From: Xanthomonas citri pv. mangiferaeindicae
GTDB lineage: Bacteria; Pseudomonadota; Gammaproteobacteria; Xanthomonadales; Xanthomonadaceae
Length of the DNA: 64,000 bases
Assembly: GCA_002240395.1 (NCBI GenBank)
Contig: CP016836.1
Location: forward strand, 2,457,174-2,521,173
Direction of reading: 5' to 3'
How positions within the stretch are numbered: position 1 is the stretch's first letter; each line of letters opens with the position of its first letter. A model generated the notes under the pieces. The model was not told the DNA's origin, made no database searches, and worked only from the letters and a program-made list of their open reading frames with translations. Position numbers and translations under genes: made by a program. Shown here in pieces: positions 2,319 through 33,105 of the stretch.

Positions 2319-2345
2319 ACAAAAAAAGGGCGCCAATGGCGCCCT
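2319..2345 (-). terminator. Rho-independent terminator for the 2346..3197 gene (hairpin AAGGGCGCC-AAT-GGCGCCCTT followed by a U7 run on the minus strand)
   Basis: Perfect 9-bp stem with a 3-nt loop directly after the stop codon; the A7 run on the plus strand gives a U-run on the minus-strand transcript. Confidence 0.75.
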
Positions 2346-3197
2346 TCACAGATCCTGCTGGTACCGGATGTACGGCACGGCGCCGTCGTCGTCGGGCAGG
2401 TCGGCCATGCGAGAGAACGGATTCTTTCCGCGGGTGACCACGTTCTCGGCGCCGACGGTGAGCTGGCCGCTCCAGGGCGTGCGCCAGCTCACGCCCACGC
2501 CCAGGCCTTCCCACTTGGGGAGCCCGGGGGTGTCGACGACCTGGCCGACGATATTGGCGCTGAAGCGCCCGATGCCGCCGCCGACGCTGACACTACTGCT
2601 CGTCCACTGGTCGCTGAGGTCGGGCGGTGCGGTTGCCGACGGGATCAGGGTCGCCTTGGCGAGCGTTCCGGCCAGCGAGACGTACGCGTCGTCGCCAATG
2701 TTCTTTCTGGCGAACACGGTCAGGTCGTGGACGTCGACCCGGCCGGCCGAGCCGCCACGTGCAGGCGTCAGCCAGCCCGGCAGCGTGTCGCGGCCTTCGC
2801 CGAAGGTCACGCCGGCACCACCGCCGGGTCGGCTGAAAGAGGCGGTCGCGGTGGCCCGACGGTTACCGGGGGCCGGATCGTCGAGCGAGGCGAGCTGGCA
2901 ATTGCGCGCCAGGCTGCTGACGGCACCGTTGAAGCTGCTGCCGGGGCTGCACAACAAGGCGAGCGAGCTGCCGGGTTCGAGGCCGAAGGCGGCGTCGAAT
3001 CGGTTCTCGCCCATGCGCCAGCGGCCGCCCGCCTGGTGCGGCGTGGCCGGTTCCAGGACGAGGAAGGCTTCGACCTTGCCGGAAGTATCGAGGACCGGCA
3101 GTACGGTCTGGTTGCGCTTTTCCTGCGCATGCGCACCCGCCGCCACGCAGAGCGCGAGGGACGAGGCGAGCAGCAGTGGCGTCAAAGACAGTCGCAT
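2346..3197 (-). CDS. Hypothetical secreted / outer-membrane protein (283 aa) with an N-terminal signal peptide
   Basis: ORF-track protein starts MRLSLTPLLLASSLALCVAAGAHAQE, a classic Sec signal. It is Gly/Ser/Pro-rich with alternating-pattern beta stretches. I recognise no family. Confidence 0.5.
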   Translation of the reverse strand: MRLSLTPLLLASSLALCVAAGAHAQEKRNQTVLPVLDTSGKVEAFLVLEPATPHQAGGRWRMGENRFDAAFGLEPGSSLALLCSPGSSFNGAVSSLARNCQLASLDDPAPGNRRATATASFSRPGGGAGVTFGEGRDTLPGWLTPARGGSAGRVDVHDLTVFARKNIGDDAYVSLAGTLAKATLIPSATAPPDLSDQWTSSSVSVGGGIGRFSANIVGQVVDTPGLPKWEGLGVGVSWRTPWSGQLTVGAENVVTRGKNPFSRMADLPDDDGAVPYIRYQQDL

Positions 3198-3261
3198 GGC
3201 CGATGTGACCCGGTCGTTGCCGGGAAGTTCCCCAGATTCACCGACCCTACTCTAGAGGGTT

Positions 3262-3298
3262 TATGTTTATTTAACAATCCTGCCACTGTCCCGGCAGG
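3262..3298 (-). terminator. Putative terminator hairpin for hslO (CCTGCC..GGCAGG) followed by an AT-rich tract
   Basis: 6-bp inverted repeat about 5 bp after the hslO stop, flanked by ATTGTTAAATAAACAT. The AT-rich stretch could also be the promoter of the 2346..3197 gene. Confidence 0.35.
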
Positions 3299-3302
3299 GC
3301 CC

Positions 3303-4208
3303 CTACTGCAACCGGTCCGACGCCTCGCCGCTGGCCACCGGGGCCGCCAGCAAGTGCTCGATCTCGTCCTCGGAGAACCGGTAGACACGACCGCAGAACT
3401 CGCAGGTGACCGAGGCCTCGCCGTCAACGGCGGCCGCGCGGGCCTCCGTTTCGCCCAGCGAGACCAGCATCGCCTCCACGCGCTCGCGTGAGCACGAGCA
3501 GGCGAAGGCCAACGGACGTTCTCCGAGCACCTGTGGATCGTCGTCGGGAAACAACCGTGTCAGCAGCGTCTCCACGGGCCATCGAAGCAATTCGCTGGTC
3601 GAGAGCGTGTCAAACAGGATGCTCGCCCGGTTCCAGCCGTCCTCGTCGCCTTCGTCGCCCGGCAGCTTCTGCAGCATCAGTCCGGCGGCGTGGTCGCCCT
3701 CGACTGCAAGCAGCACGCGGGTCGGCAACTGTTCGGACTGGCGGAAGTAGTCCTCGAACGCGCCCGACAGCGATTCGGACTGCAGGCCGACCAAGCCCTG
3801 GTACCGCATCGGGTCACGGCCCTGTGCGGGGTTTTCGATCGTCAGCGCCAGGATCGCGTCATCGCCCAGCGTGCGCAGGTCGCGTGAGATGGTCTCCGCA
3901 CCCGCCTCGGCGATCCGCGCAATGCCGCGGATGGTGCCGGCCGCGGTGCACTCGGCAAACAGCGCCCGCAGCGGCCCGGATGCGCGCAGTTGCACCGACA
4001 GCCGGCCGTCGACCTTGGCATGGCCGGTGAACAGCGCGGCGGCAGCACAGGCCTCGCCCAGCAGGACTTCGACCGAGGCGGGGTAGCGTGCGTTCGCCAG
4101 GACCCGGCGCCAAGTCTCGGTCAGGTGCACGCGGACGCCGCGCACGCCGGCGCGCTGGAGCAGGAAGCGGGACAGCCGGTCGCTGTCGGGAGCGGAGGTT
4201 TCGGTCAT
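3303..4208 (-). CDS. hslO: Hsp33 redox-regulated chaperone (301 aa)
   Basis: [17 protein letters not shown]... through C-terminal [16 protein letters not shown]...[12 protein letters not shown], the CxC...CxxC zinc/redox switch of Hsp33. Start placed by residue counting within ORF 3303..4955 (Met 250). Confidence 0.9.
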
Positions 4209-4268
4209 GAGGTCGTCGTGAGGCGGCGGCGATTGGCGGCATCGGGCGTGCCCGATACAGTGGCCGCC

Positions 4269-5045
4269 ATGATGCAGTCGGTTCGAGAAGATGGGGGCGA
4301 GGGCGGCGCTGCGCAAGCAGGCGTCGCACATCGCCGCGTGGCGCCGCGTCGGCGCCGATGGCTGCGCAGGCTGCTGTGGCTGCCGGTGCTGGCGATCGGG
4401 TTCACCGTGTTGCAGGTCCTGGTGCTGCGCGTGATCGATCCGCCGTTCTCGACGGTCATGGCACTCCGCCAGATCGAGGCCTGGACCGGCGGAGAGGATG
4501 ACTTCGTGCTCTACCACCAGTGGCGCGATCTGGACCAGATCGCGCCCTCGCTTGCGGTCTCGGTCATTGCCGCCGAGGACCAGAACTTCGCGCGGCATCG
4601 CGGCTTCGATCTCGAGGCGATCGAGCGCGCCCGCGCGCACAACGCCCGTGGCCGCTCGACCCGGGGCGCAAGCACGATCAGTCAGCAGACGGCGAAGAAT
4701 CTGTTCCTGTGGAGCGGGCGCAGTTGGGTGCGCAAGGGCCTGGAGGCCTGGTACACGGTGCTGATCGAACTGCTCTGGCCCAAGACCCGGATCCTGGAGG
4801 TGTATCTGAACGTCGCGGAGTTCGGCGACGGGATCTATGGCGCGCAGGCTGCTGCACGTGCGCATTTCGGCAAGGACGCCGCCCAACTGTCGCGTGCGCA
4901 GAGTGCGAGGTTGGCAGCGGTGCTGCCGAGCCCACGGCGCTACAACGCCGCCCATCCCGGGCCTTATGTCCAGCGCCGGGCGCAGTGGATCGAACGCAAT
5001 GCGCGCCAGATCGGCGGCGAGGCCTATCTGGACACGCTGCGATGA
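4269..5045 (+). CDS. mtgA: Monofunctional biosynthetic peptidoglycan transglycosylase (~258 aa)
   Basis: N-terminal TM helix [23 protein letters not shown], then the GT51 motifs [32 protein letters not shown] and [15 protein letters not shown]. Start is Met 94 of ORF 3990..5045; it may be the Met one codon downstream. Confidence 0.8.
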
Positions 5046-6046
5046 GCGCCGGCGCGCCGGCCGAGCGCCTGACGATCGTCATCGCCGCCTTCGACGAAGC
5101 ACGGTCGTTACCGCTGCTGCACCCCCGCATCGCCGCGGTCATGGAGACGCTTGCCGACGATGGCATCGACGCGGGCGTGTTGTACGTCGACGACGGCAGT
5201 ACCGATGGGACCTGGGAGGTGCTGCAGGCACTGGCGGTATCGGATCGGCGGGTGTCGCTGCTGCGGCTGTCGCGCAACTTCGGCAAGGAGATCGCGTTGA
5301 CTGCGGGCCTGGATCTGGTGACCGAGGGGGCGGCGATGATCCTCGATGCCGATGGCCAGGATCCGCCGGAGCTGATCCCAAGCTTCGTCGCGCTCTGGCG
5401 CCAGGGCTACGACGACGTCCACGGCACCCGGCTCAGCCGAGAAGGGGAGCGGTGGTTCAAGAAGCTCACCGCGCACGTGTTCTATCGGGTGATGCAGCGG
5501 CTGGCCAAGACGCCAGTGCCGGCCGATACCGGCGACTACCGGCTGCTGTCGCCGCGCGCACTGGCCGCGTTGCGCCAGTTGCGCGAGCGGCATCGATTCA
5601 TGAAGGGCCTGTTCGGCTGGATCGGGTTCAATCGTGTCGCGCTGCCCTACGAGCGGCATGCGCGTTTGGCGGGGCGCACGAAGTTCGGCTTCTGGCGGCT
5701 GTGGAACTTCGCACTCGAGGGCGTGACCAGCTTCTCGACCGCGCCGTTGCGGCTGGCGACCTACGTCGGTGTGTTCACCGCGTTCGGCGCGTTCGCGTTC
5801 GCCCTGTGGGTCATCGCCAAGGCGATGCTGTTCGGCGATCGTGTGGCCGGCTGGCCGACGATGATGGCGGTGATCCTGTTCCTGGGCGGCGTGCAACTGG
5901 TGGCGCTGGGCGTGATCGGCGAGTACCTGGGCCGGTTGTACGAGGAGTCCAAGCAGCGGCCGCTCTACTTCGTGCGCGATTGGCATCCGGCGGGCACTGC
6001 CACGCCTGCGCTCGAGAATCCAATCGGCCACCACCACAGCCGCTGA
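5042..6046 (+). CDS. Family-2 glycosyltransferase, polyprenyl-phosphate sugar transferase type (ArnC/DPM1-like), with two C-terminal TM helices
   Basis: [10 protein letters not shown]...[16 protein letters not shown]...[14 protein letters not shown] (DxD) plus a C-terminal membrane segment. The ATG overlaps the mtgA stop (ATGA), which indicates translational coupling. Confidence 0.8.
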
Positions 6047-6049
6047 GGC

Positions 6050-8029
6050 TCACTTGGCGTAGGCGCCGCCGCAGCTGCTGTCCTCGCCGCCGCCCAGTTC
6101 CAGGGTCGCCAGCAGCGCGGCGGGCGGCGCGATCGAGCCGAGCGCGAGTGCGACCGCGCCGCGCAGGCCCAGACGGGCCATGTCGGGGCGGAAGCTGGGG
6201 TCGGCGAAGGTGCCGCCGATCACCAGCGGCGAGCGCAGCGCGAGAATGCTGCGGTCCTTGGGCCGCGGGCGCAGCTCCAGATCCAGGGTCTCCTGGCCGA
6301 GGTCGATACGCCCGTCGCCGACGATCAGGGTGTCGGTGGTGTCGAATGCGAGTGCACGGCTTTGCATGACGCCCTTCTGCACGCCGAAATCGGCGAATGC
6401 GCAGCGGACCGGGATCTGCTTGTCCTTGCCGATCAGATACTTGAGCGTCTCGTAGATGTCGATCCCGGCCAGCTCGACGAGCATATTGCTGACCCGGCCT
6501 CTGCCCATTCCGACGGCGATATCGCCGTTGGCGCTGCCCAGCATTGCGGCGACCGAGTTGCCGGTGCCGGCGAGATTGAAGTCGCCGCCGATCTTGCCCA
6601 CTGCCTGGCTGGCGAGCGCGGTATCGGGGAACAGGCCGCCCAGGTCGACGCGGCGCACGCTGGCCTGGAGCCGGGTGTCGATGGTGTCGTTGCGCGCATC
6701 CATGCGGATGGTCGAGCGGATATTGCCGCCCGCGACGCCGAAGTTCAGTGGATCGAGCCGCAGCAACCCTGCCTCGAGCTTGAGATGGGCGTCCATGTCG
6801 TCGATCGGCAGCTTCGGTGCGTTGATGCGTTGTGCGCGCAGGCGCACGTCGGCGTCCATCGAGCGCAACTTGCCCAGCTCGTAGGGGGTATCGGGGATCA
6901 CCTTGCCCCGGGCGGCGAGGGCCTGTTCGCGCCGGACGAGCTCGGGATCGAGCGGCGCATCGCCTTCGCTATCGGGCGTGCCGCCGATGAAGCCGGCCAG
7001 ATCATCGAAATCCAGACGCCTGGACACCAGGTCGGCCTTCAGGAAGGGCCGCTCGCCGCCCACGGTGAAAGCGGCCGAGCCGCCGAGGTCGCTCTGGCCG
7101 ACCTTGCCGGTGAAGCCATCGTAATGCCAGGTCTGGCCGTCGCGGGTCAGGCGCCCGTCGAGGGCGTAAGGCGGGGTGTCGGGCAGGGCGACCCCGACCA
7201 GCGGATACAGATGTTCCAGATTGCGCCCCGACAGTGCGAACTGCAGGTCGAAGTCGCGCAGTTCGAACGGCGCGGTGAGGCTGCCGCGCGCGTGTGCGTG
7301 GGTCGTGCCCGCAGACGCGCGCAGGTCGAGGTGGTAGGGCTTGTCTTCGTCCTGCAGCGCGAGCGGAGACTCGGCCACGCCTTCAAGCGTGAAGCCGTTG
7401 CCGCTCCACTGGCCATCGCCCTCGATCGCGATCGCAGGCGCCGCGTCGGCCCCCGCGCGCGAGGGCCGGCTGGCCAGGCGCACGTCCACGCGGGTCTTGC
7501 TCGGTGCGTCGACGAAACGCAGGCGCCCATCGTCGACCCAGAGGCGGCGGATCTGCATCGGCTCTCCGTCGCCATCGCCCATGTCGAACGTCCAGTTGCC
7601 GCCGCTCCCGTCCGGGTTGGTTTCAAGCAGCAGCACCGGGCGTGCCAGGCGGATTTCGGGCAGGCGGATGCGGCCGCGGAGCAGCGGGAAGACCTCGACC
7701 TGCAGTTCCAGCCGGTCCGCCGCCGCCATCGTCCTGTCCTTGGCCCAGTCGGCATTGGCGAAGCGCAGGCGATCCGCACGCACGGTGGTCACCCGGCCCA
7801 GGTCGACATCGAGGTCGCCGCCGATCTGCAGCACGCGCCCCGTCTGCGCGTGGACGATGCGCTCGACCGGGCGTTTGAACCAGTTCCAGTCCCAGAAGAG
7901 GATCAGCAGCAGCACCAGGACCGCGATCACCGCCAGCACGACGCGCCCCGGATGTCCGAAGAATGCGCCGCGCACGCGCGTGGCGTGCGAGCGCGGGGGC
8001 GGTACGGCAGTGGGCGTGGGATCGGTCAT
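6050..8029 (-). CDS. AsmA-family outer-membrane biogenesis protein (659 aa)
   Basis: N-terminal anchor VVLAVIAVLVLLLILFW followed by a long repetitive beta-rich periplasmic domain, typical of AsmA/TamB-like proteins. Start is Met 17 of ORF 6050..8077. Confidence 0.7.
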   Translation of the reverse strand: MTDPTPTAVPPPRSHATRVRGAFFGHPGRVVLAVIAVLVLLLILFWDWNWFKRPVERIVHAQTGRVLQIGGDLDVDLGRVTTVRADRLRFANADWAKDRTMAAADRLELQVEVFPLLRGRIRLPEIRLARPVLLLETNPDGSGGNWTFDMGDGDGEPMQIRRLWVDDGRLRFVDAPSKTRVDVRLASRPSRAGADAAPAIAIEGDGQWSGNGFTLEGVAESPLALQDEDKPYHLDLRASAGTTHAHARGSLTAPFELRDFDLQFALSGRNLEHLYPLVGVALPDTPPYALDGRLTRDGQTWHYDGFTGKVGQSDLGGSAAFTVGGERPFLKADLVSRRLDFDDLAGFIGGTPDSEGDAPLDPELVRREQALAARGKVIPDTPYELGKLRSMDADVRLRAQRINAPKLPIDDMDAHLKLEAGLLRLDPLNFGVAGGNIRSTIRMDARNDTIDTRLQASVRRVDLGGLFPDTALASQAVGKIGGDFNLAGTGNSVAAMLGSANGDIAVGMGRGRVSNMLVELAGIDIYETLKYLIGKDKQIPVRCAFADFGVQKGVMQSRALAFDTTDTLIVGDGRIDLGQETLDLELRPRPKDRSILALRSPLVIGGTFADPSFRPDMARLGLRGAVALALGSIAPPAALLATLELGGGEDSSCGGAYAK

Positions 8030-8140
8030 CGCGGCTCGCGTCCTGTTTGCGAGGCACCATCCCGCCCGCTCGATCAAGCCCGGGTGAATCCGTTGTGGCG
8101 CGTTCAGTCCGCGGATTCGACGCCACCGCGCGCGTTGGCA

Positions 8141-8794
8141 TCAGCGCGCCGGCACGACCTGGGCGAGCACCGCAACGTAGTGACAGACGCTGCCGGCGAT
8201 GCAGAACAGGTGCCAGATCGCATGCGCGTAAGGGATCGACTCGCGCATGTAGAAGAACGTGCCCAGGGTGTAGAACACGCCGCCGGCGATGATCCAGCTC
8301 AAGGTCCAGGTGTCGAGCGCGGCGGCGACCGGGCCGATCGCGATCACCACCAGCCAGCCCATCGCCACGTAGATCGCGGTCGACAGGCCACGGAAGCGCC
8401 CGGTGTAGAACAGCTTGAAGACCACGCCGGCCAGCGCCAGGGTCCAGATGGTGCCAAACAGCCACCAGCCCAATGTGCCGCGCAGCCCGATCAGCGTGAA
8501 CGGTGTATAGGTGCCGGCGATCAACAGATAGATCGCGCAGTGGTCGAACACTTTCAGCCGGCCCTTGAGGACCGGGTGGTGGACGGCGTGATAGAGCGTC
8601 GAAGCCAGGTAGAGCAGCAGCAGCGTGATGCCGAAGACGATCGAGGCGCCGAGTTGCCAGCCGTTGCCGTACAGCGCGGCGAGCGTGATCAATACCGCGC
8701 CGGCGGCGAGCGCCGCGGTCGCGCCGAGGCCGTGGGTCAGCGCACTCGCGAATTCCTCGCGCTTCTCGCGCAGGGACGGGACAGGGGAGGCCAT
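8141..8794 (-). CDS. Hemolysin-III / PAQR family 7-TM channel protein (217 aa)
   Basis: MASPVPSLREKREEFASALTHGLG... with seven hydrophobic helices and the conserved His residues (HAVHHP..., HAIWHLF) of the Hly-III family. Start is Met 47 of ORF 8141..8932. Confidence 0.8.
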   Translation of the reverse strand: MASPVPSLREKREEFASALTHGLGATAALAAGAVLITLAALYGNGWQLGASIVFGITLLLLYLASTLYHAVHHPVLKGRLKVFDHCAIYLLIAGTYTPFTLIGLRGTLGWWLFGTIWTLALAGVVFKLFYTGRFRGLSTAIYVAMGWLVVIAIGPVAAALDTWTLSWIIAGGVFYTLGTFFYMRESIPYAHAIWHLFCIAGSVCHYVAVLAQVVPAR

Positions 8795-8879
8795 GTTGGT
8801 GCGTCCGACGGGGGAGGGACTGGTCGGATTATGACCCCCGCGGCGCGGTCCTGTCAGACCGCACCGGTCGAGCCGGCGG

Positions 8880-10484
8880 TCAGGCGGCCGGCATCGCGTG
8901 CGCATGCTCCCGCGTGGCCAGGAATTCGACACCCGGCGCGCGCTCCTCGGCCAGTTGCAGGTTCACCCGGGTCGGTGCGAGATAGACCAACTGGTCGGCC
9001 GCGTCGATCGCGAGATTGCCTGCGTGTTTGTCGCGGAAGTCCTCAAGCTTCTTGGCGTCCGCGCAGCGGATCCAGCGCGCGGTCGAGACCTGCACCGGTT
9101 CGAAGATCGCGTCCACGCCGTACTCGTCCTTGAGCCGGTAGGCGACCACGTCGAACTGCAGCACGCCGACCGCGCCAAGGATCAGGTCGTTGCTCATCAG
9201 CGGCTTGAAGAACTGAGTCGCGCCTTCCTCGCTGAGCTGCGCCAGCCCCTTCTGCAACTGCTTGAGCTTGAGCGGGTCGCGCAGACGTGCGCGGCGGAAC
9301 AGCTCGGGCGCGAAGTTGGGAATGCCGGTGAAGGCGATCGGCTCGCCTTCGGTGAAGGTGTCGCCGATCGAGATCGTGCCGTGGTTGTGGATGCCGATCA
9401 CATCGCCCGGATAGGCCTCGGCGGCGATCTCGCGGTCGCTGGCCATGAAGGTCAGCGCGTTGGCGAGCTTGAGCTCCTTGCCGCTACGCGGGTGGAAGGC
9501 CTTCATGCCGGCGGCGAACCGGCCCGAGCACACACGCATGAACGCGACCCGGTCGCGATGCTGCGGATCCATGTTGGCCTGGATCTTGAACACGAAGCCG
9601 GTCAGCTTGTCCTCCTGCGGCGCCACGGTGCGCGTGGTCGTGGCGCGCGGTTGCGGCGGCGGTGCGTGTTCGACGAAGAAGTCGAGCAGCGGCTGGACGC
9701 CGAAGTTGTTGACGCCCGAGCCGAAGAACACCGGCGTCTGCCGGCCGGCGCGATAGGCCGCAAGGTCGAACGGATGGCTGGCGCCCTGCACCAGCTCCAA
9801 CTCATCGCGCAGGTCGGCCAGCATCGCCTGACCGATTCGCTCGGCCAGGCCGGGCGCATCCAGCGAGGGGAAGATCGTCGAGTCCTGGCGGGTGAAGTTG
9901 CGGCCTTGTTCGTAGAGATGCACTTCGCCGGTGAGCAGGTGCACGACACCCTTCAGGCGCTGGCCCATGCCGATCGGCCAGGTCACCGGGGCGCACTGGA
10001 TGCCCAGCACGCGCTCGACTTCGTCGAGCAGGTCGACCGGGTCCTTGCCCTCGCGGTCGAGCTTGTTGACGAAGGTCATGATCGGCGTGTCGCGCATGCG
10101 GCACACCTCCATCAGCTTGATCGTGCGCTCCTCGACGCCCTTGGCGACGTCGATGACCATCAGCGCCGAGTCGACCGCGGTCAGCACGCGATAGGTGTCC
10201 TCGCCGAAGTCGGCGTGGCCGGGCGTGTCGAGCAGGTTGACGATGCGGCCCTCGTAGGGGAACTGCATCACCGAGCTGGTGACCGAGATGCCGCGCTCCT
10301 TCTCCAGCGCCATCCAGTCGGACGTCGCGTGACGGGCGGCCTTGCGCCCTTTGACCGAGCCGGCCATCTGGATCGCGCCGCCGAACAGCAGCAGCTTCTC
10401 GGTGAGGGTGGTCTTGCCGGCGTCCGGGTGCGAGATGATCGCGAAGGTACGGCGGCGGGCGGCTTCGGTGGCGACGTCGGGCAT
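8880..10484 (-). CDS. prfC: Peptide chain release factor 3 (534 aa)
   Basis: [39 protein letters not shown]...NLLDTPGH...NKLDR gives the GTPase G1-G4 motifs of RF3. The 1,343-aa track ORF 8880..12911 is an artefactual upstream extension; the real start is fixed by residue count. Confidence 0.9.
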
Positions 10485-14158: not shown

Positions 14159-15243
14159 GCACGGTCGTCGCCTTGCGCCGTGCGCGCCGGACGCAACCGC
14201 AGCCCGCTCGGCTCGCGTTGCTGGGCACCGGTACTGTCGGCAGTGCCTTCGTCGCGCGCTACCAGGGGCTGGCCGCGCGGGGCCTGGCGCTGCCGGCCTT
14301 GGCGCGGATCTGCAATTCGCGCACGCAGATCGCCTGCGGCGACGATCCGGTGGCGGTGCTCGAACAGGCGCGTGTCGCGGCGACCCGACGCAACGGCTTT
14401 CCGCCCTGGGCCGAGGGCGAGAGTCCGCGGCCGGGCGATATCGTGGTCGATGCGACCGCCAGCGAGACAGTCGCCGACTGGCATCCCGAGTGGCTCGCGC
14501 GCGGAGTCCACGTGGTCACCGCCAACAAGCTCGGTACCGGCGGCGAACTCGGCCGGGCGCAAGCGATCGCCGAGGCGGTCGGCAGCGAAGGTGGCGGCCG
14601 CTATGGCGACAGCGCCACGGTCGGTGCGGGATTGCCGTTGCTGCGCAGCCTGCGCGCGCTGGTCGCCGGCGGCGACCGCATCCACGCGGTCGAAGGGGTG
14701 TTGTCGGGGTCGCTGGCCTGGTTGTTCGCCCGGTTCGACGGCAGCCAGCCGTTTTCGACTCTCGTGCAGGAGGCCCGCGCTGCCGGCTTCACCGAGCCCG
14801 ATCCGCGCATCGATCTGTCAGGCGAGGACGTGCGCCGCAAGCTGTTGATCCTGGCGCGGGCGGCGGGGCTGCCGCTGTCGGCGCATCAGGTCGCAGTCGA
14901 ATCGCTGGTGCCGCCGGCATTGGCCGCACGCGAGGTTGGGGCGCTCGAGGGCGGGTTCGCCGAGCTCGACACCGCGCTCGCCGCGCGCTGGGCCGCAGCG
15001 TCCGCGGAAGGATTGCGGTTGTGCGTGGTGGGACGTTTCGATGCGCTCGGCGGTGCCAGCGTCGGTCTGCGTGCATTGCCGGCGCATCACCCGCTGTGCG
15101 CCGGCGGCGGAACCGACAACCGGGTTGCGATCCACAGCGATCGCTATCGCGAACAGCCGCTCGTGATCCAGGGCCCCGGGGCCGGTGCGGAAGTGACAGC
15201 AGCAGCATTGCTCGACGACGTCCTGGCCTGCGCGCGACCCTGA
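14155..15243 (+). CDS. hom: Homoserine dehydrogenase, short ACT-less form (362 aa)
   Basis: LALLGTGTVGSAFVARY NAD(P)-binding motif and a catalytic domain ending ...IQGPGAGAEVTAAALLDDV, with no C-terminal ACT domain. The ATG overlaps the metB stop (ATGA). Confidence 0.8.
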   Translation: MSTVVALRRARRTQPQPARLALLGTGTVGSAFVARYQGLAARGLALPALARICNSRTQIACGDDPVAVLEQARVAATRRNGFPPWAEGESPRPGDIVVDATASETVADWHPEWLARGVHVVTANKLGTGGELGRAQAIAEAVGSEGGGRYGDSATVGAGLPLLRSLRALVAGGDRIHAVEGVLSGSLAWLFARFDGSQPFSTLVQEARAAGFTEPDPRIDLSGEDVRRKLLILARAAGLPLSAHQVAVESLVPPALAAREVGALEGGFAELDTALAARWAAASAEGLRLCVVGRFDALGGASVGLRALPAHHPLCAGGGTDNRVAIHSDRYREQPLVIQGPGAGAEVTAAALLDDVLACARP

Positions 15244-15332
15244 CCCGCCCGAGCCTGGGGCAAACCCTAGATCGGGTGCACCCCGATGGCAGGAAGCTGA
15301 ACGGCGCGCTGAAATGGCGTCATTCAGTTTCC

Positions 15333-16115
15333 ATGTCGATCACGGGGGTCTCCATCATGTCCAACACATCTTCCTTGAGCATGTCCGTCTCGCTGAGCGT
15401 CAGCGGCCAGTTGCCGTCGGTGCAGAGCTCGGCCAGCACCCAGCGCACATCCGACGGGCGGGTGCAGTTCGAGAACGATAACTACCGCATCACCGCCGGC
15501 GACAACGACGAGGTGGTGGTGTTCAACAAGAACACCGGCGAGAACTACCGCATCTGGGGCGATCCCCACGTCGAGATCGACGGCAAGCACGCCTTCGACT
15601 TCTGGGGCCAGACCACCTTCCTGCTCGACGACGGGACCAAGGTCACCATCGAGACCACGCCGTGGGAGCAGGGCGGCAATGGTGCGACGGTGGCCTCGGT
15701 CGTGACGATCACCGACGGCGACTACGGCGTGCAGATCTCCGGTGTCGACAGCAACACCTATGGCGACCTGGCGTTCCAGGAGTTCGCCGGCGGCGGCCGT
15801 CTGCTCGATGCCGCCGTGCGCGACGGCAACGTGCTGCTGGAGAACGAGAACGGCAGCGGCTTCATCGCCGTCGACCAGAACGGCAACATCCAGAATGTCG
15901 ACCAGGCCTTCATCAATGCCACCGACGAACTGAAGAACGGCGGCCCGGACTTCCTGGCCCACTTCGCCGAGATCTTCTCGTTCTTCACCGGCCTGATGTC
16001 GATCGGCTTCAACGGCGGGCTGTCGCTGGGCAGTGACAATCCCAACCGCGACCCCGAGCCGACCGCCCAGCCGGTGCCGTGGCAGTTCAGCCTGACGCTG
16101 ACGATCAGCGCCTGA
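15333..16115 (+). CDS. Cysteine-free, N-terminally Ser-rich protein with a DUF1521/MIIA-like metal-ion-inducible autocleavage motif (WGDPHVEIDGKH)
   Basis: 260 aa if the start is Met-1 (15333), 252 aa if it is the Met at 15357 preceded by GGGGG. No Cys, no signal peptide, Ser-rich first 35 aa, Gly/Asn/Asp-rich, host-like GC3 codon usage. The GD|PH motif is the self-cleavage site described for NopE1/MIIA domains. Confidence 0.6.
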   Translation: MSITGVSIMSNTSSLSMSVSLSVSGQLPSVQSSASTQRTSDGRVQFENDNYRITAGDNDEVVVFNKNTGENYRIWGDPHVEIDGKHAFDFWGQTTFLLDDGTKVTIETTPWEQGGNGATVASVVTITDGDYGVQISGVDSNTYGDLAFQEFAGGGRLLDAAVRDGNVLLENENGSGFIAVDQNGNIQNVDQAFINATDELKNGGPDFLAHFAEIFSFFTGLMSIGFNGGLSLGSDNPNRDPEPTAQPVPWQFSLTLTISA

Positions 16116-16130
16116 TTGGCGCATGTCCCC

Positions 16131-16170
16131 AAAAACGGCGTGCCGCGACCACGGCGCGCCGTTTTTCTTT
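16131..16170. terminator. Bidirectional rho-independent terminator between the MIIA-like gene (+) and vapC (-)
   Basis: AAAAACGGCGTGCCG-CGACCA-CGGCGCGCCGTTTTTCTTT: a 12-bp stem (1 mismatch) flanked by an A5 run upstream and a T5CT3 run downstream. Confidence 0.7.
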
Positions 16171-16216
16171 GGATCACCTGGGTGCGCGGCGTTGCTCGCC
16201 GTCGCCATGCGCGGCT

Positions 16217-16627
16217 TCAGCCTCGATACCCGAAGGGGTCGAACAACGGCACGCCGAAGGGGCGGAAATCCTTGAGGTTCCGTGTGACCACGGTCAGCCC
16301 ATGGACGAGGGCCGTCGCAGCGATTAGCCCATCCTCAAGGTGATGGTCTGGACGGCCGTGCATGAGCCGCGCCCATTGCCGGAAGACGGCAGCATCGGCA
16401 GACAACACGGCGTATGAGTCGGCGAGCTCGTCGAGCCAGACCTGGATGTCCGACGCCTTGGCCGGGTCGAGGCCGCGGGTGATCTCGATGCCGGCCTGGA
16501 TTTCACCAATCGTCACTGCCGACAGGTAAAGACCGCTTTCGGGCGCCTGTCCAATCCAGGCCTGTACGCCGCCGTGCGGCTTGTTCTTGCGCAACTCCGA
16601 AACGACATTCGTATCCAGCAGGAACAT
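16217..16627 (-). CDS. vapC: PIN-domain toxin VapC (136 aa)
   Basis: MFLLDTNVVSELRKNKP...ATALVHGLTVVTRNLKDF is the PIN fold (D5, E, D acidic residues). Start is Met 26 of ORF 16217..16702. Confidence 0.8.
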   Translation of the reverse strand: MFLLDTNVVSELRKNKPHGGVQAWIGQAPESGLYLSAVTIGEIQAGIEITRGLDPAKASDIQVWLDELADSYAVLSADAAVFRQWARLMHGRPDHHLEDGLIAATALVHGLTVVTRNLKDFRPFGVPLFDPFGYRG

Positions 16628-16631
16628 GCGG

Positions 16632-16886
16632 TCAGTCGAGCGCCTCGGGATCGTGCCGCCGCAGACGGCCTCGCGGCGGCAGGGGCAGGCCATCCGGGCC
16701 ATCGGGCGCCTGCAGCAGCGCCTTCAGGCTGCGTGGCCGCTGCTGCAACCGTTGCCACTGCTCCATCGGAACGACGACTGCGGTCGGTTTGCCATGATGG
16801 CTGACGATCTGCGGGCCGTCCTCCACGCTGGCGCGCAGAAGCTCGCTGAAGCGCGCCTTTGCTTCCTGAACTTGCCAAGTCTTCAT
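16632..16886 (-). CDS. vapB: Type II antitoxin (Phd/YefM- or VapB-like, 84 aa)
   Basis: Small protein MKTWQVQEAKARFSELLRASVEDGPQIV..., typical antitoxin N-terminus. It ends 4 nt before the vapC start. Confidence 0.7.
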   Translation of the reverse strand: MKTWQVQEAKARFSELLRASVEDGPQIVSHHGKPTAVVVPMEQWQRLQQRPRSLKALLQAPDGPDGLPLPPRGRLRRHDPEALD

Positions 16887-16945
16887 GAAAGCTCTCCACG
16901 CCCGATCTAGTCTGAATTCTGGTCCGAAATCAGGTCTGGGTCAAC

Positions 16946-24177: not shown

Positions 24178-25215
24178 ATGGCCGCCTCCCGTCCGTCCTC
24201 CACCGCCCGCATGCCGAAAGGGCGGCGCGACGACCTCATCCAGTTGCGCCCCGAGGGCCTGTACTGCCCGGCCGGCGATTTCCATATCGATCCTTGGCGT
24301 CCGGTGCCGCGTGCGGTGATCACTCACGGCCACGGCGACCATGCGCGCACTGGCATGGGCGCCTACCACACCACGCGTGCGGGGCTGCCGATCCTGGAGT
24401 GGCGCCTGGGCGAGCAGATCTATGTCGCACACGATTACGGCGCGCCATTCCAGATGGGCGCGGCGACGGTGTCGCTGCATCCGGCCGGCCACGTGCTGGG
24501 CTCGGCCCAGGTGCGGGTGGAGGTCGACGGCGAGGTCTGGGTCGCCTCGGGCGACTACAAGCGCCAGCACGATCCGACCTGCGCACCGTTCGAGGTCGTG
24601 CGCTGCGACACCTTCATCACCGAGGCCACGTTCGGCCTGCCGGTCTACCGATGGCCCGACACCGCACTGGTCGCCGCCGAGATCGAGGCCTGGCGCGCGC
24701 ACTGCGAGACGCGCGGGGAGGTGGCGGTGCTGTTCTGTTACGCGCTGGGCAAGGCCCAGCGCGTGCTGGCCGAACTGGCGGCGCATACCGACCAGCCGGC
24801 GCTGCTGCACGGGGCGGTCGCCGCCGGCGTCGAGGTCTACCGGCGGGCCGGCATCGCGATGCTCGACACCCTGCCGGTCGCCGAGACCGATCGCGGCGGC
24901 GATTTTGCCGGCCGGTTGGTCATCGCGCCGCCATCGGCGGCCGGCAGCGCGTGGATGCGCCGGTTCCGCCGCGCGCAGCAGGGCTTCGCATCGGGCTGGA
25001 TGCGCATTCGTGGCAATCGACGCCGTCGCAACTACGATCGCGGCTTCGTGGTGTCCGACCACGCCGACTGGCCCGATCTGATGCGGACCGTGCGCGAGAC
25101 CGGTGCCACGCGGGTGATCGCGACCCATGGCAACACCGATGCGATCATCCGTGCGCTACGCGAGGATGGCATCGCGGCCGAAGCCTTCCGCACCGATTTC
25201 GGGGACGAGGAATGA
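24178..25215 (+). CDS. Ligase-associated DNA damage response exonuclease (metallo-beta-lactamase fold)
   Basis: ...LIQLRPEGLYCPAGDFHIDPWRPVPRAVITHGHGDHAR... is the HxHxDH MBL motif. The start is uncertain: Met 14 at 24178 or Met 25 at 24211 of the ORF. Confidence 0.75.
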   Translation: MAASRPSSTARMPKGRRDDLIQLRPEGLYCPAGDFHIDPWRPVPRAVITHGHGDHARTGMGAYHTTRAGLPILEWRLGEQIYVAHDYGAPFQMGAATVSLHPAGHVLGSAQVRVEVDGEVWVASGDYKRQHDPTCAPFEVVRCDTFITEATFGLPVYRWPDTALVAAEIEAWRAHCETRGEVAVLFCYALGKAQRVLAELAAHTDQPALLHGAVAAGVEVYRRAGIAMLDTLPVAETDRGGDFAGRLVIAPPSAAGSAWMRRFRRAQQGFASGWMRIRGNRRRRNYDRGFVVSDHADWPDLMRTVRETGATRVIATHGNTDAIIRALREDGIAAEAFRTDFGDEE

Positions 25216-25240
25216 GCGCCCGGCGCTCGAGGGCCTGCGC

Positions 25241-26953
25241 ATGAGGCGCTTCGCCCGGCTGTACCGCGAGCTCGATCGCAGCACCGCCACGCTCGACAAG
25301 CGCGCGGCACTGGTTGCCTACTTCCGCGACGCGCCGCCGCACGATGCCGCCTGGGCGCTGTTCCTGCTGGCCGGCGGCAAGGTCGCCGGGGCCGGGCGAC
25401 GCATCGCCAATACCCGCGAACTGCGCGAATGGATTGGTGAGGCCGCGGGCTTGCCCGACTGGCTGGTCGACGACAGCTACGACCAGGTCGGCGACTTGGC
25501 CGAGACGCTCGCGCTGCTGCTCGACGATCCCGTCGCGCCGGCCGACGACGTCTCGCTGGCCGAATGGATCGAGCGGCGGCTGATCCCGGTCGCCAATCGC
25601 GACCCGGCGGTCCGGCGCGCGCTGGTGGTCGAGGCCTGGGCTTCGCTGTGTTTCGACGAGCGGCTGGTGTTCAACAAGTTGCTGACCGGCGCGCTGCGCG
25701 TGGGCGTTTCGCAGCGACTGGTGCAGCAGGCGCTGGCGGAGATGAGCGGGCTGGACATCGCGCGTATCGCCCAACGCATGCTCGGCAGTTGGACGCCGAG
25801 CGCGCAGTTCCTGCGCGACCTGCTCTCGCCCGACGAACTGCCCAGCGACCGGCGTCAGCCGTATCCGTTCTTCCTTGCTTCGCCCTTGGAGCAGGCGCTG
25901 CGTCCCGACACGGTGAGCGAGGGCACGGATGTCGAGGCGGCCGCCGATGCGGAGCCGGATATGGACGTGGCGGCGCCGGTGCTGGCCAACGATCCCGACG
26001 CGGTCGCGCGTGCGCTCGGCCCGATCGAAGACTGGCTGCTGGAATGGAAGTGGGACGGCATCCGCCTGCAACTGATCCGCCGCGGCGCGGACATCGCGCT
26101 GTGGTCGCGCGGCGAAGAACGCCTCGACGGACGCTTTCCCGAGATCGAAGCCGCGGCGCTGACGCTGCCCCGCGACTGTGTGTTCGACGGCGAGCTGCTG
26201 GCCTGGCGGCCGGGCGAACCCGCGCCGATGCCGTTCACCGCGCTGCAGACCCGCATCCAGCGCCGCAAGCCCGGACCGAAGACACTCGCCGACACGCCGG
26301 TGCGCGTGCAGGTCTACGACCTGCTCGAGCTCGACGGCGAGGACTGGCGCGACCGGCCGCAGGCCGAGCGCCGGGCGATGCTCGAGACATTGGTCGCCCA
26401 GTACGACGATCCGCGCATCGTGATCTCGCCGCGTGTGGACGCCGCTGACTGGGCGCAGGCCGCCGCGCTGCGCGCCGATGCCCGCGCGCGCGGCGTCGAG
26501 GGCTTGATGCTCAAGCGCGCCGATGCCCGCTACCAGGCCGGCCGGCGTCGCGGCGACTGGTGGAAGTGGAAGATCGATCCGCTGACCATCGACGCGGTGC
26601 TGATCTATGCGCAGGCCGGCCACGGCCGGCGCAGCACGCTCTACACCGACTACACCTTCGCACTGTGGGATGGCGACACCCTGGTGCCGGTCGCCAAAGC
26701 CTATTCGGGGCTCGACGACCGCGAAATCCTCGCGCTCGACAAGTGGATCCGCGCGCACACCCTCGAGCGCTTCGGGCCGGTGCGTTCGGTCACCGCGCAC
26801 CATGTCTTCGAGCTCGGCTTCGAGGCGGTCAACCGCTCGAGCCGGCACAAGTCCGGCATCGCCGTGCGCTTTCCGCGCATCCTGCGCTGGCGCCGCGACA
26901 AGCCGATCGCCGAGGCCGATCGGCTCGAGACCTTGCGGGCGCTCGCACGGTGA
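25241..26953 (+). CDS. ATP-dependent DNA ligase, ligase-associated damage-response type (570 aa)
   Basis: Nucleotidyltransferase motif I WLLEWKWDGIRLQ (KxDG), motifs III-V (FDGELLAW, LMLKRADARYQAGRRRGDWWKWK) and OB domain. Start is Met 39 of ORF 25127..26953. Confidence 0.85.
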   Translation: MRRFARLYRELDRSTATLDKRAALVAYFRDAPPHDAAWALFLLAGGKVAGAGRRIANTRELREWIGEAAGLPDWLVDDSYDQVGDLAETLALLLDDPVAPADDVSLAEWIERRLIPVANRDPAVRRALVVEAWASLCFDERLVFNKLLTGALRVGVSQRLVQQALAEMSGLDIARIAQRMLGSWTPSAQFLRDLLSPDELPSDRRQPYPFFLASPLEQALRPDTVSEGTDVEAAADAEPDMDVAAPVLANDPDAVARALGPIEDWLLEWKWDGIRLQLIRRGADIALWSRGEERLDGRFPEIEAAALTLPRDCVFDGELLAWRPGEPAPMPFTALQTRIQRRKPGPKTLADTPVRVQVYDLLELDGEDWRDRPQAERRAMLETLVAQYDDPRIVISPRVDAADWAQAAALRADARARGVEGLMLKRADARYQAGRRRGDWWKWKIDPLTIDAVLIYAQAGHGRRSTLYTDYTFALWDGDTLVPVAKAYSGLDDREILALDKWIRAHTLERFGPVRSVTAHHVFELGFEAVNRSSRHKSGIAVRFPRILRWRRDKPIAEADRLETLRALAR

Positions 26954-27014
26954 CGGCGGCGTCCGGCGAGCGCGGCCGTCCGCGGTGCGCAGGGACGTGG
27001 CCCGGCCGGTGGCG

Positions 27015-29513
27015 ATGACTCGTCTTCGCGGCCCCGATGCGCCGCTGCGCGCCTGGTTTGCGGCGCAGGGCTGGCGTCCGGCACCGTTCCAGCGCGAGGT
27101 CTGGCGCCGGTATCTGGCCGGGGAGTCGGGCCTGTTGCATACCCCGACCGGCAGCGGCAAAACACTGGCCGCCTTCGGCGGGCCCCTGCTCGAAGCGCTG
27201 GCCGCGCGCCCGCGTGCGAAGGCCGGTCCACGCACGACCCCGGCGAAGTCAGCCGCGCGTGCCGGCAAAGACGCCGGGCGCAGGCTGCAGGTGCTGTGGA
27301 TCACCCCGCTGCGCGCGCTCGCGGTCGACACGGTGCGCGCATTGCGCGCGCCGATCGAGGCGCTCGGTCTGGATTGGACGGTCGCCATGCGCACTGGCGA
27401 TGCCAGCGCACGCGACCGGCGGCTGGCGCGCAGCGGCCAGGCCGAGGTGCTGGTGACCACGCCCGAATCGCTGTCATTGCTGCTCTCCTATGCCGACACC
27501 GCGCCGCTGCTGGCCTCGGTGCGCTGCGTGGTCGTCGACGAATGGCACGAACTGCTCGGCAACAAGCGCGGCGTGCTGCTGCAGCTGGCGCTTGCGCGGC
27601 TGCGCCGGCTCGCACCGGCGCTGCGCATCTGGGGCGTCTCGGCGACGCTCGGCAACCTGGCGCAGGCGCGCGATGCGCTGCTGCCGCATTGTCCGCAGGC
27701 GCAGGTGGTCGCCGGGGTGGCGCCCAAGCGTTTCACGCTCGACACGCTGCTGCCCGGCGAGGACGAGCGCTTTCCGTGGGCCGGCCATCTGGGCCTGGCG
27801 CAGTTGCCGCGTGTGCTGGAGCGGCTGATGGCCGAACGCACCAGCCTGCTGTTCGCCAACACCCGCTCGCAGGCCGAACTGTGGCATCGCGCGCTGTCGG
27901 CGGTCTGGCCGGAGGCGCCCGAAACGCTGGCACTGCATCACGGTTCGCTCGATCCGAAGCTGCGCGCGGCCGCTGAGCAGGGCCTGCGCGCCGGCAGCGT
28001 GCGCTGCGTGGTTGCGACCTCCAGCCTCGATCTCGGTGTCGACTTTCCCGCCGTCGACCAAGTACTGCAGATTGGCAGCCCGAAAGGCGTCTCGCGCTTG
28101 CTGCAACGTGCCGGGCGCGCACGCCACCGCCCGGGCGAAGCGGGGCACGTGGTCTGCGTGCCGACGCACGCGCTGGAACTGGTCGAGTACGCCGCGGCTC
28201 GCGCCGCGGTTGCCGCGGGTACGATCGAATCGCGCCCGCCGCCTGTGCTCAGCCTCGATGTGCTGGCCCAGCACTGTGTGACGCTGGCGCTGGGCGGCGG
28301 CTTCGAGGCCGATGCGCTTTACGACGAAGTCCGCGGGACCCATGCGTTCCGCGCGCTCGACCCACTGGCCTGGCGCGCGGTGCTCGATTTCATCGTCCAG
28401 GGCGGCGCGGCGCTGGCGCATTACCCCGACTTCCGCCGCGTGGTGCGCGGCGAGGACGGGGTCTATCGGGTCGAGGACCGACGCATCGCGCTGCGTCATC
28501 GCCTGTCGATCGGCACGATCGCCAGCGATGGCGCGGTGCGCGTGAAGCTGCTGCGCGGCGGGGGCCTGGGCTCGGTCGAGGAGAGTTTCGTCGGTCGCTT
28601 GCGGCCGCGCGACCGGTTCCAGTTCGCCGGCCGCACGCTGGAGTTGGTGCGGCTGGAAGACATGACCGCGTACGTGCGCGTCGCCAAGGCCGGCAGCGGC
28701 ACGGTGCCCAAATGGCAGGGCGGCCGGATGTCGCTGTCGGGCACGTTGGCGCACGAGGTCGAGCGCCTGTTCGCCGGCCCGCGCGATGCACCGGAGCTGC
28801 GTGCGATCGGTCGGCTGCTCGATCTGCAGCAGCGGCTGTCTGCACTACCGGCGCCGGGCCGCCTGCTGGTGGAATGGATCCGCGCGCGCGGCGCGCGCCA
28901 CCTGTTCGTGTTTCCGTTCGCCGGGCGTCAGGTGCACGAGGGCCTGGCCGCGCTGCTGGCGCTGCGCTGGGGCCGCCTGCGCGCCAACAGCTTCTCGTTC
29001 GCCGCCAACGATTACGGCTTCGTGCTCTCGCCCGCGCAGGAAGTGGAGCTCGATGCGCTCGATGTCGAAGCGATGCTCTCGCCCGAGGCCTTGATCGATG
29101 ACCTGCGCGAGAGCCTGAACCTGGCCGAGCTCGCCCGCCGCCAATTTCGCGACATCGCCCGCGTCGCCGGTCTGCTGCCGCCGTCGCTGCCCGGACGCGC
29201 GCCACGTTCGATGCGCCAGTTGCAGGCCTCCAGCGGCCTGCTGTTCGACGTGCTGCGCCGGCACGATCCCGACCACATGCTGCTGGCGCTGGCCGAGCGT
29301 GAGGTGTTCGCCGCGCAACTGGACGTGGTGCAACTGCGCACCACGCTGGAGGATTGCAGTGCCCGCAGGCTCGACCTGCATCCGCTGCGCACGTTCACCC
29401 CGCTGTCGTTCCCGCTGTGGGCCGAGTCGATGCGTGGCCAGCTCAGCACCGAGGACTGGCGCACACGCGTGCAGCGCGCGGCGGCGCAACTGGAGCGGCG
29501 CAATCGTGGCTGA
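27015..29513 (+). CDS. Ligase-associated DEXH-box helicase (Lhr-core-like, 832 aa)
   Basis: Motif I LLHTPTGSGKTLAA, motif II VVVDEWHEL (DEwH), motif VI QRAGRARHRPG. Start is Met 137 of ORF 26607..29513. Confidence 0.85.
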   Translation: MTRLRGPDAPLRAWFAAQGWRPAPFQREVWRRYLAGESGLLHTPTGSGKTLAAFGGPLLEALAARPRAKAGPRTTPAKSAARAGKDAGRRLQVLWITPLRALAVDTVRALRAPIEALGLDWTVAMRTGDASARDRRLARSGQAEVLVTTPESLSLLLSYADTAPLLASVRCVVVDEWHELLGNKRGVLLQLALARLRRLAPALRIWGVSATLGNLAQARDALLPHCPQAQVVAGVAPKRFTLDTLLPGEDERFPWAGHLGLAQLPRVLERLMAERTSLLFANTRSQAELWHRALSAVWPEAPETLALHHGSLDPKLRAAAEQGLRAGSVRCVVATSSLDLGVDFPAVDQVLQIGSPKGVSRLLQRAGRARHRPGEAGHVVCVPTHALELVEYAAARAAVAAGTIESRPPPVLSLDVLAQHCVTLALGGGFEADALYDEVRGTHAFRALDPLAWRAVLDFIVQGGAALAHYPDFRRVVRGEDGVYRVEDRRIALRHRLSIGTIASDGAVRVKLLRGGGLGSVEESFVGRLRPRDRFQFAGRTLELVRLEDMTAYVRVAKAGSGTVPKWQGGRMSLSGTLAHEVERLFAGPRDAPELRAIGRLLDLQQRLSALPAPGRLLVEWIRARGARHLFVFPFAGRQVHEGLAALLALRWGRLRANSFSFAANDYGFVLSPAQEVELDALDVEAMLSPEALIDDLRESLNLAELARRQFRDIARVAGLLPPSLPGRAPRSMRQLQASSGLLFDVLRRHDPDHMLLALAEREVFAAQLDVVQLRTTLEDCSARRLDLHPLRTFTPLSFPLWAESMRGQLSTEDWRTRVQRAAAQLERRNRG

Positions 29514-32993: not shown

Positions 32994-33059
32994 GGCCGCA
33001 CTCGCTCCGCAACGTCGCAGAGGCGGTCGCCGGCCGCCGGTGACGCGCCGAGATCCACC

Positions 33060-33082: not shown

Positions 33083-33105
33083 GTCACAGCGCAGGATGAG
33101 TCGTG

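Follow-up and report, generated by a model that had tools for sequence, protein, structure and literature searches.

Metal-ion-inducible autocleavage (MIIA) domains, which constitute the DUF1521 family, have to our knowledge been studied in only two systems, one from a legume symbiont and the other from a coral pathogen, both of which deal with eukaryotic hosts, and we know of no structure for any of them. They are represented by NopE1 and NopE2 of Bradyrhizobium diazoefficiens USDA110, type III-secreted proteins with two MIIA domains, for which a role as a possible translocon substitute has been proposed in Bradyrhizobium (PMC7643967), and by VIC_001052, encoded in a T3SS (type III secretion system) gene cluster of Vibrio coralliilyticus. 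The Vibrio MIIA domain is disordered until Ca2+, bound at two sites, induces its folding; it is then cleaved after the Asp of a GDPH motif, a reaction abolished in a D-to-A mutant (Hoyer et al., PMC6506597). Its dissociation constant is in the low micromolar range, its authors hold that the sites are unoccupied at the low Ca2+ of the bacterium, and the published "host-sensing" model of type III secretion has two fragments released (PMC6506597). Self-cleavage at GDPH, through an Asp anhydride, is likewise a property of VWD domains, in which a loop between two sheets carries the motif and a Ca2+ site is present (PMC8267560, PMC11796319). Here we describe a DUF1521/MIIA gene on the forward strand of a 64,000-nucleotide stretch of DNA (contig CP016836.1, positions 2,457,174 to 2,521,173, deposited under Xanthomonas citri pv. 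mangiferaeindicae), which in its full length is termed the window below.

The gene is a compact, well-conserved addition to this known and already automatically annotated family, not a new type of system; its added value lies in its T3SS-linked orthologues, a common upstream box and a VWD-like fold. We propose, with a probability of roughly 60%, that it encodes an exported 252-residue MIIA protein, which would fold on binding Ca2+, cleave itself at D69|P70 and be controlled by the upstream box, with a type III route as its most likely way out of the cell.

A compact and conserved member of the DUF1521/MIIA family

A previous sequence-only reading of this DNA had placed the protein in the DUF1521/MIIA family on the strength of its GD|PH motif. 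A profile hidden Markov model search bears out this assignment: the protein matches Pfam DUF1521 (PF07481, InterPro IPR011086; the accession given earlier, PF07484, was wrong) with E=4.8e-33 and 115 bits, as against a gathering cutoff of 23.6, the match spanning positions 15-163 of the 169 in the profile. No further Pfam domains were detected in the protein, and NCBIfam and PADLOC returned no match for it. A search of 5.8 billion proteins recovered 443 relatives, and among the matches listed all contained PF07481 and the named ones were "DUF1521 domain-containing proteins" of Luteimonas and Burkholderiales. When 1.84 billion cluster representatives were searched exhaustively, only 588 matched at E<=0.001, and the family is thus rare. 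The two domains of a 497-residue NopE-type protein of Bradyrhizobium are 35% and 34% identical to the window protein.

The predicted cleavage site lies in WGDPHVEIDGKHAFDFWG, residues 67-84 in the numbering of the 252-residue product. The conservation of the motif among orthologues, on which the earlier assignment depended, is borne out: WGDPH does not vary among the 18 aligned orthologues, GDPH is found in all 120 of the closest relatives, and 232 of 259 aligned family members have it at the same column. Cleavage at D69|P70 would yield fragments with computed masses of 7.5 and 19.4 kDa. The composition is also as first described, viz., Cys-free, Gly/Asn/Asp-rich (0 Cys, 29 G, 20 N and 21 D) and Ser-rich at the N-terminus, where the first 30 residues include 12 Ser (40%), no acidic residue and one basic one. 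With an isoelectric point of 4.07 (33 D+E versus 11 K+R), and with the loop DSNTYGDLAFQEF departing from the PROSITE EF-hand pattern PS00018 at position 5 only, the acidic, Ca-binding-like context noted previously is upheld. The D, N, G, D and L of this loop are invariant among the aligned orthologues, and the corresponding loop of the Vibrio domain matches PS00018 in the same relaxed manner (Hoyer et al., PMC6506597). The suggestion of a harpin- or effector-like protein stands insofar as the composition is Gly-rich, acidic and Cys-free, but not at the level of families, as there is no match to a harpin family in Pfam. The Cys-free state is shared by 66 of the 120 closest relatives.

Both regions outside the domain have features that recur in the relatives. 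No Sec signal peptide is evident by eye at the N-terminus of the window protein, and S and T account for 15 of its first ~31 residues, among which are a single R and neither D nor E; in 119 relatives the equivalent region has a median length of 30 residues, 68% of them small or polar, and is nearly charge-free. On the C-terminal side, the hydrophobic Gly/Ser-rich segment at residues 198-224, which includes LAHFAEIFSFFTGLMSIGFNGGL, reaches a maximal 19-residue hydropathy of 1.38 (0.8-2.3 in 120 relatives, where it occurs at a median of 140 residues after GDPH) and is a candidate membrane-inserting or docking element. Comparison of the C-terminal tail with PDB sequences produced a sole, non-significant likeness, to a transmembrane helix of a reaction centre. 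The end of this tail (...SLTLTISA) resembles that of Escherichia coli HlyA (...SITLTASA). In several of the more distant Luteimonas orthologues, which belong to the second group (P0012, P0019, P0036 and P0040), a GG-C motif, e.g., IAAGGC or ITVGGC, is seen ~20-25 residues from the N-terminus; it is not a canonical lipobox, and the window protein has no Cys.

A predicted all-beta fold resembling the VWD domain

The full-length structural model is confident only in its core, the N-terminal region having a predicted local distance difference test score (pLDDT) below 50. A domain-only model, built from 69 sequences, has a pLDDT of 91.8 and a predicted template modelling score (pTM) of 0.89, and presents a sandwich composed entirely of beta-strands, several of them supplied by the part N-terminal to the cleavage site, with G-D-P placed in an interstrand loop. 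Independently of the model, a profile of the orthologues matches FCGBP with a whole-sequence E-value of 5.6e-7 and places WGDPHvxiDGkxaFDFwGqttfxL against the GDPH start of four FCGBP VWD domains, each individual site being weak. The common motif takes the form WGDPH-x3/4-DG-x2-FDF-x-G-x3-[FY]-x-L, with GDPH equivalently placed in the VWD domains; the window protein has both the N-terminal GDPH...DG..FDF.G..Y.L motif and, in the model, the beta-sandwich fold of that group. An hhalign comparison with one FCGBP VWD fragment gave a probability of 76% over 63 columns, well beyond the motif. Model and profile matches together group the domain with the VWD domains of FCGBP, mucins and VWF.

Several observations count against this link: Pfam VWD (PF00094) is not listed for the window protein even at E<=10; Foldseek, using the full-length model, returned nothing below E=0.04 from PDB; and with 0 Cys the protein has neither the disulfide framework of VWD domains nor their C8/TIL/E modules. 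Only ~80-104 residues superpose on VWD domains. The likeness is probably a case of remote homology, or at least of a common structural solution, though it could reflect either very remote homology or convergence. In the open literature that was searched, MIIA and VWD domains are connected only where a paper on GDPH cleavage in FCGBP cites NopE1. If the relationship is true, it would tie the self-processing of a bacterial effector to the maturation of mucins, FCGBP and RGM, and would provide a small, Cys-free model protein for the triggering of GD|PH cleavage.

Type III-linked orthologues and a common upstream box

A genome scan for the DUF1521 family retrieved 79 loci, 54 of them from Burkholderiales and the others from Luteimonas. 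The Burkholderiales loci belong to the Rubrivivax, Roseateles/Pelomonas, Aquincola, Rhizobacter and Ideonella group and encode the same ~250-residue protein. Clustering of the flanking open reading frames (ORFs) identified homologues of FliP/SctR, SctS and SctT within 10 kb in 17 of the 54, some directly adjacent, and homologues of SctU and SctN in other Burkholderiales loci. Aquincola sp. J276 has the gene order sctL-like, sctN, ..., sensor kinase, LuxR-type response regulator, sctR, sctS, sctT and DUF1521. Linkage to a T3SS is found for the Burkholderiales orthologues and not in the window or the flanks of the Luteimonas genes. The sequence-only reading had noted an absence of T3SS genes and of a plant-inducible-promoter (PIP) box near the gene, and both negatives stand: none of the ~30 window ORFs scanned is a T3SS gene, and TTCGB-N15-TTCGB has 0 matches in the whole window, which thus lacks the element expected of an HrpX regulon.

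The type III cluster of Aquincola (positions 1-9888 of locus L081) is itself divergent, with several genes without a Pfam match and weak matches for FliH/SctL and YscO, and the sensor kinase and LuxR-type response regulator are embedded in it between sctN and sctR. The apparent recurrence of "Family 2" sensor kinases near the gene was rejected, being an artefact of how generic HisKA/HATPase domains cluster. Proteins with DUF6683 recur in 35 of the 54 Burkholderiales loci.

The genes just downstream of the Burkholderiales DUF1521 gene code for LysM-CHAP and SLT-LysM-CHAP cell-wall hydrolases, and other downstream products are glycine-zipper proteins, each with a small partner, and a WHH/colicin-DNase toxin; most of them have no signal peptide by eye. 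The toxin gene lies directly downstream of DUF1521 in Rubrivivax-type loci (L072 4663-5784; also L053 and L056), whereas in Roseateles/Pelomonas a glycine-zipper protein with its small partner and LysM-CHAP hydrolases are found instead. Such polymorphic-toxin-like cargo adjoining a type III export cluster is unusual.

Upstream of the gene, the alignment of 12 Luteimonas sequences reveals a first conserved block, CTGGGGCAAA-CCCTAGATCGGG-TGCACCCCG (15255-15289), with a CTAG-centred box at its core. The core pattern CCC[TC]AGNTN[CG]GG occurs upstream of the DUF1521 start in 40 of the 79 loci, and in two bacterial classes, as against ~1 occurrence expected from how often the pattern occurs overall; its distance from the gene is most often ~90-110 nt in Luteimonas and in Burkholderiales alike, and it is unique within the window. 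A further 16 intergenic copies in Burkholderiales precede LysM-CHAP, LysM/glycine-zipper and other genes by roughly that distance, and the products of the box-preceded genes have no signal peptides. Positions of the box are 9915 and 10796 in L081, and 9892, 12631 and 15168 in L082; no copy was seen to precede the sct genes of the Aquincola locus. From this distribution we infer that the box may mark a set of co-regulated cargo genes, in the manner of a regulon-wide promoter element. Its retention suggests that Luteimonas has kept the same control and perhaps also the same logic of export, and, given the adjacency to T3SS genes in Burkholderiales together with this common box, a T3SS-free window of 64 kb does not demonstrate independence from a T3SS.

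The second conserved block, TGAAATGGCGTCATTCAGTTTCCAT, which is likewise unique in the window (0 expected by chance), contains the inverted repeat GAATG-N4-CATTC and is situated after the box, upstream of the ribosome-binding site. Nothing in Rfam matches it, and Rfam applied to 15150-16300 gave only a sub-threshold match over the terminator. A scan for sigma-70 promoters found none for the DUF1521 gene, and by eye the upstream blocks do not have the spacing of sigma-54 (GG-N10-GC), sigma-28 or HrpL hrp-box elements.

Proposed mechanism and alternative explanations

By analogy with NopE1 and VIC_001052, the polypeptide would be unfolded at the low Ca2+ of the cytoplasm and would be exported by means of its ~30-residue N-terminus, which is uncharged and Ser/Thr-rich. 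Ca2+ binding, whether outside the cell or within a target cell, would lead to folding into the beta-sandwich, in which the side chain of D69, in a strained G-D-P-H loop, would attack its own peptide bond and split the protein into a 7.5-kDa N-terminal and a 19.4-kDa C-terminal fragment. Going a step further, the C-terminal fragment with its hydrophobic tail might be the active part, either as an effector or as a helper or translocator that interacts with membranes, and the gene might be switched on through the CTAG box along with those for other exported proteins. The conserved hydrophobic tail fits the translocon-substitute idea advanced for NopE. We take the type III route as first choice because of the T3SS-linked orthologues and the common box; in Luteimonas the system would most likely be encoded elsewhere in the genome, which is the weak step of this proposal, a type I-like or other route being its main rival.

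A number of points weigh against this proposal. No type III or other dedicated secretion gene is present among the ~30 ORFs scanned across the 64 kb, nor any type III secretion gene in the 20-kb neighbourhoods of the Luteimonas orthologues, and Luteimonas is not named among the 120 relatives listed for the Aquincola SctN ATPase (at least 67% identity), which counts at most weakly in the same direction. The N-terminal export signal is judged from composition only. Further, ~10% of the wider family, among its distant members, have no GDPH, so cleavage is not essential to every member; and since the cleaved fragments of FCGBP remain together, with the Asp buried (PMC11796319), release of the fragments is not guaranteed.

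The absence of T3SS genes from the window and the Luteimonas neighbourhoods would be accounted for if the same domain chemistry were combined in Luteimonas with a different exit, e.g., a type I system (ATP-binding cassette (ABC) transporter, membrane fusion protein (MFP) and TolC) that recognises the C-terminal ~60 residues. The protein is acidic, Cys-free and Gly/Asp/Asn-rich, like other calcium-folding proteins, its C-terminal tail is conserved and has an HlyA-like end, and a Ca-dependent Asp-Pro self-processing module is present in the repeats-in-toxin (RTX) protein FrpC, as cited in PMC8267560. We nevertheless think this exit rather unlikely: the 252-residue protein has no GGxGxD nonapeptide (RTX) repeats, no ABC or MFP genes occur among the ~30 scanned window ORFs, the C-terminal motif is also present in the T3SS-linked Burkholderiales orthologues, and the Ser-rich, charge-free N-terminus and common upstream box point to the protein being handled as those orthologues are. 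It is improbable, too, that the GD|PH cut is instead a fold-stabilising maturation of the kind seen in the FCGBP VWD domain, which would leave an intact, noncovalently held beta-sandwich serving, for example, as a Ca-binding or adhesive protein of the surface or matrix. Such an outcome would accord with the VWD-like fold and its equivalently placed motif, with the stabilisation of the domain by cleavage and the buried Asp in FCGBP (PMC11796319), with the strands that the N-terminal fragment gives to the modelled sandwich, and with the retention of the domain in some GDPH-less family members; yet, unlike VWD domains, the protein has no Cys to tether its fragments, and the published Vibrio model releases both (PMC6506597). 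Maturation of this sort is, moreover, compatible with the exported, self-cleaving protein proposed here and not exclusive of it.

The housekeeping neighbourhood (metX-metB-hom upstream, sdaA downstream), in which no secretion genes were found, might suggest that the protein is never secreted and serves as an internal switch responding to metal, located in the cytoplasm or periplasm. This is very improbable in view of the orthologues embedded beside T3SS export genes, of a box held in common with genes for signal-peptide-less LysM/CHAP proteins that must act outside the cytoplasm, and of the low-micromolar dissociation constant of the Vibrio domain, at which the sites would be empty inside the bacterium (PMC6506597). 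Returning to the exported MIIA protein, a more far-reaching version of it, which we offer tentatively and consider doubtful, would make the MIIA domain a disulfide-free bacterial counterpart of VWD, alike in Ca2+-dependent folding and GD|PH self-cleavage, with Ca2+-triggered cleavage in this ~250-residue subfamily arming a hydrophobic tail that aids the divergent type III delivery of signal-peptide-less cargo (LysM/CHAP hydrolases, glycine-zipper proteins and the WHH nuclease), all under the control of one CTAG box; Luteimonas, having retained box and gene in a housekeeping region, might then run the module with the apparatus encoded elsewhere, or without one.

Gene structure and genomic context

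Both ORF versions of the earlier description exist on the + strand, from 15333 or 15357 to 16115, corresponding to 260 or 252 residues. The ATG at 15357 is the conserved start, as ATG or GTG is present there in 12 of 12 aligned Luteimonas sequences, preceded by a conserved AGGGG, while the in-frame ATG at 15333 is not conserved across the same upstream regions; the product is therefore 252 residues long. The G+C content by codon position (0.56/0.43/0.93) marks the + strand frame as coding and as a native-type gene in a genome of 70% G+C, and the 294-residue antisense ORF at 15324-16208 was rejected on the same measure as a high-GC artefact. The ratio of nonsynonymous to synonymous substitution rates (dN/dS) is 0.04-0.25 against eight Luteimonas orthologues. 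The DUF1521 gene is thus a real, native Luteimonas gene under purifying selection; it is best explained as chromosomal and vertically inherited in this genus. An identity look-up found no record of the exact window protein in public assemblies. Coordinates of the gene and associated elements are collected in Table 1.

Table 1. Features of the DUF1521/MIIA locus, in window coordinates
Feature	Positions	Strand	Basis
Conserved upstream element CTGGGGCAAA-CCCTAGATCGGG-TGCACCCCGATGG	15255..15289	+	Near-invariant in 12 Luteimonas upstream regions
Core 12-bp CTAG-centred box (CCCTAGNTNGGG, conserved flanks), 92 nt before start codon	15265-15276	+	
Second conserved block TGAAATGGCGTCATTCAGTTTCCAT, Luteimonas-specific; candidate core promoter or 5' leader	15310..15334	+	12-sequence alignment
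Shine-Dalgarno-like GGGGG, 8 nt before ATG 15357	15344..15348	+	Read from sequence; AGGGG in all aligned Luteimonas
Coding sequence of the 252-residue DUF1521/MIIA protein, stop included	15357..16115	+	ORF, Pfam, alignments, codon GC, dN/dS
N-terminal region, ~31 residues, Ser/Thr-rich, almost uncharged, variable; candidate export signal	15357..15449	+	Composition; pLDDT <50
DUF1521/MIIA domain, residues 40-191; acidic all-beta sandwich, VWD-like fold	15474..15929	+	
G68-D69-P70-H71, predicted autocleavage site, scissile bond D69|P70	15558..15569	+	Motif conservation, model, Vibrio homologue
EF-hand-like loop DSNTYGDLAFQEF, residues 131-143, candidate Ca2+ site	15747..15785	+	PROSITE PS00018 minus position 5
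Hydrophobic Gly/Ser-rich segment ...LAHFAEIFSFFTGLMSIGFNGGL..., residues 198-224, outside Pfam domain	15948..16028	+	Hydropathy, conserved pattern
C-terminal strand-like motif QFSLTLTISA, form FS[LF]T[LV], kept in relatives	16083..16112	+	Alignment; low-confidence strand in model
Intrinsic terminator, 15-bp stem, closing arm ending UUUUU, then CUUU	16131..16166	+	Fold energy -35.6 kcal/mol, z = -3.1
Type II toxin-antitoxin pair: vapC (PIN) ~16217-16627, phd/yefM 16632-16886	16217..16886	-	Pfam PIN, PhdYeFM_antitox

The window DNA is ~93-96% identical to that of Luteimonas sp. RC10, and its source is accordingly a near relative of this strain. In the closest Luteimonas group the gene occupies the position between the metX-metB-hom operon upstream and sdaA downstream; in a second group it is found a few kb away, between prfC and a gene for an M23 peptidase, and in L. 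terricola and L. arsenica it is at other locations. The toxin-antitoxin pair to which the gene had been described as adjacent is genuine, with PIN and Phd/YefM components, but has no link to it. The ~0.78-kb segment from the terminator to sdaA (~16165-16944) has no counterpart in the alignments with the closest relatives, Luteimonas sp. RC10 and TWI596, and among the Luteimonas loci the toxin-antitoxin proteins are found only in Luteimonas sp. FCS-9; the pair is a strain-variable, incidental insertion unrelated to the DUF1521 gene. The third-position G+C of this cassette lies below the filter of 0.82 used for gene calling.

The ~30 other window ORFs scanned are housekeeping or DNA-repair genes. 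The sole secretion- or pilus-related ones seen are two genes in tandem for pilT/pilU-type ATPases of the T2SSE family (47332-49737). Two ORFs without a Pfam match flank a DNA ligase of the ATP-dependent type (25151-26953) and an Lhr-type DEAD/DEAH helicase (26985-29513) at 24178-30180, in an arrangement that resembles a ligase-associated DNA-damage-response operon. A further region (31008-40276), which may be a stress or conflict system, includes a gene (33103-38424) for a 1773-residue protein with DUF3686, DUF7902 and AAA_5 domains, preceded by a 661-residue ORF without a match and followed by another such ORF and a TelA-family gene.

Comparison with described systems

The compact, single-domain form of the MIIA protein is widespread and under purifying selection in free-living bacteria of soil and water, viz., Luteimonas and the Rubrivivax-Roseateles group. 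Its confident structural model, its candidate loop for Ca2+ and the candidate regulatory box upstream are each open to direct testing. MIIA domains have served as calcium-triggered cleavage tags, and short natural variants such as this one may have practical use in that role.

Among described proteins, harpins are likewise Gly-rich, acidic and Cys-free with no evident signal peptide; the window protein differs in having no harpin Pfam match and a core that is a defined, confidently modelled beta-sandwich. FrpC of Neisseria, an RTX protein of the "clip-and-link" type, also has a Ca2+-dependent Asp-Pro autocleavage module in a secreted acidic protein (cited in PMC8267560); this likeness is by description only, and FrpC is type I-secreted with RTX repeats, which the window protein lacks. 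The self-cleaving VWD domains of FCGBP, MUC2, MUC5AC and RGM share the placement of GDPH in a loop between two strands, but they are disulfide-rich, with their cut halves held together by disulfides, and are accompanied by C8/TIL/E modules, in contrast to the window protein with its 0 Cys and no such modules.

The two studied MIIA systems are closer. VIC_001052 likewise has a single MIIA domain with a GDPH site and a large excess of negative charge; in both proteins a canonical EF-hand is missing, and a loop agrees with PS00018 if position 5 is relaxed. VIC_001052 is the longer protein, with 370 residues and the domain at 73-243, whereas that of the 252-residue window protein begins ~35 residues from the N-terminus (the comparison follows the published description). 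Relative to NopE1 and NopE2, the window protein has one domain and not two, half the length, and a conserved hydrophobic C-terminal tail outside the domain; its gene has the CTAG box and lacks a PIP box (for the rhizobial tts box the comparison was made by eye), and its surroundings in Luteimonas yielded no T3SS genes. With NopE it nonetheless shares the same Pfam domain, an acidic composition and a GD|PHV motif in the same alignment column, and nopE lies beside core T3SS genes, as do the Burkholderiales orthologues of the window protein.

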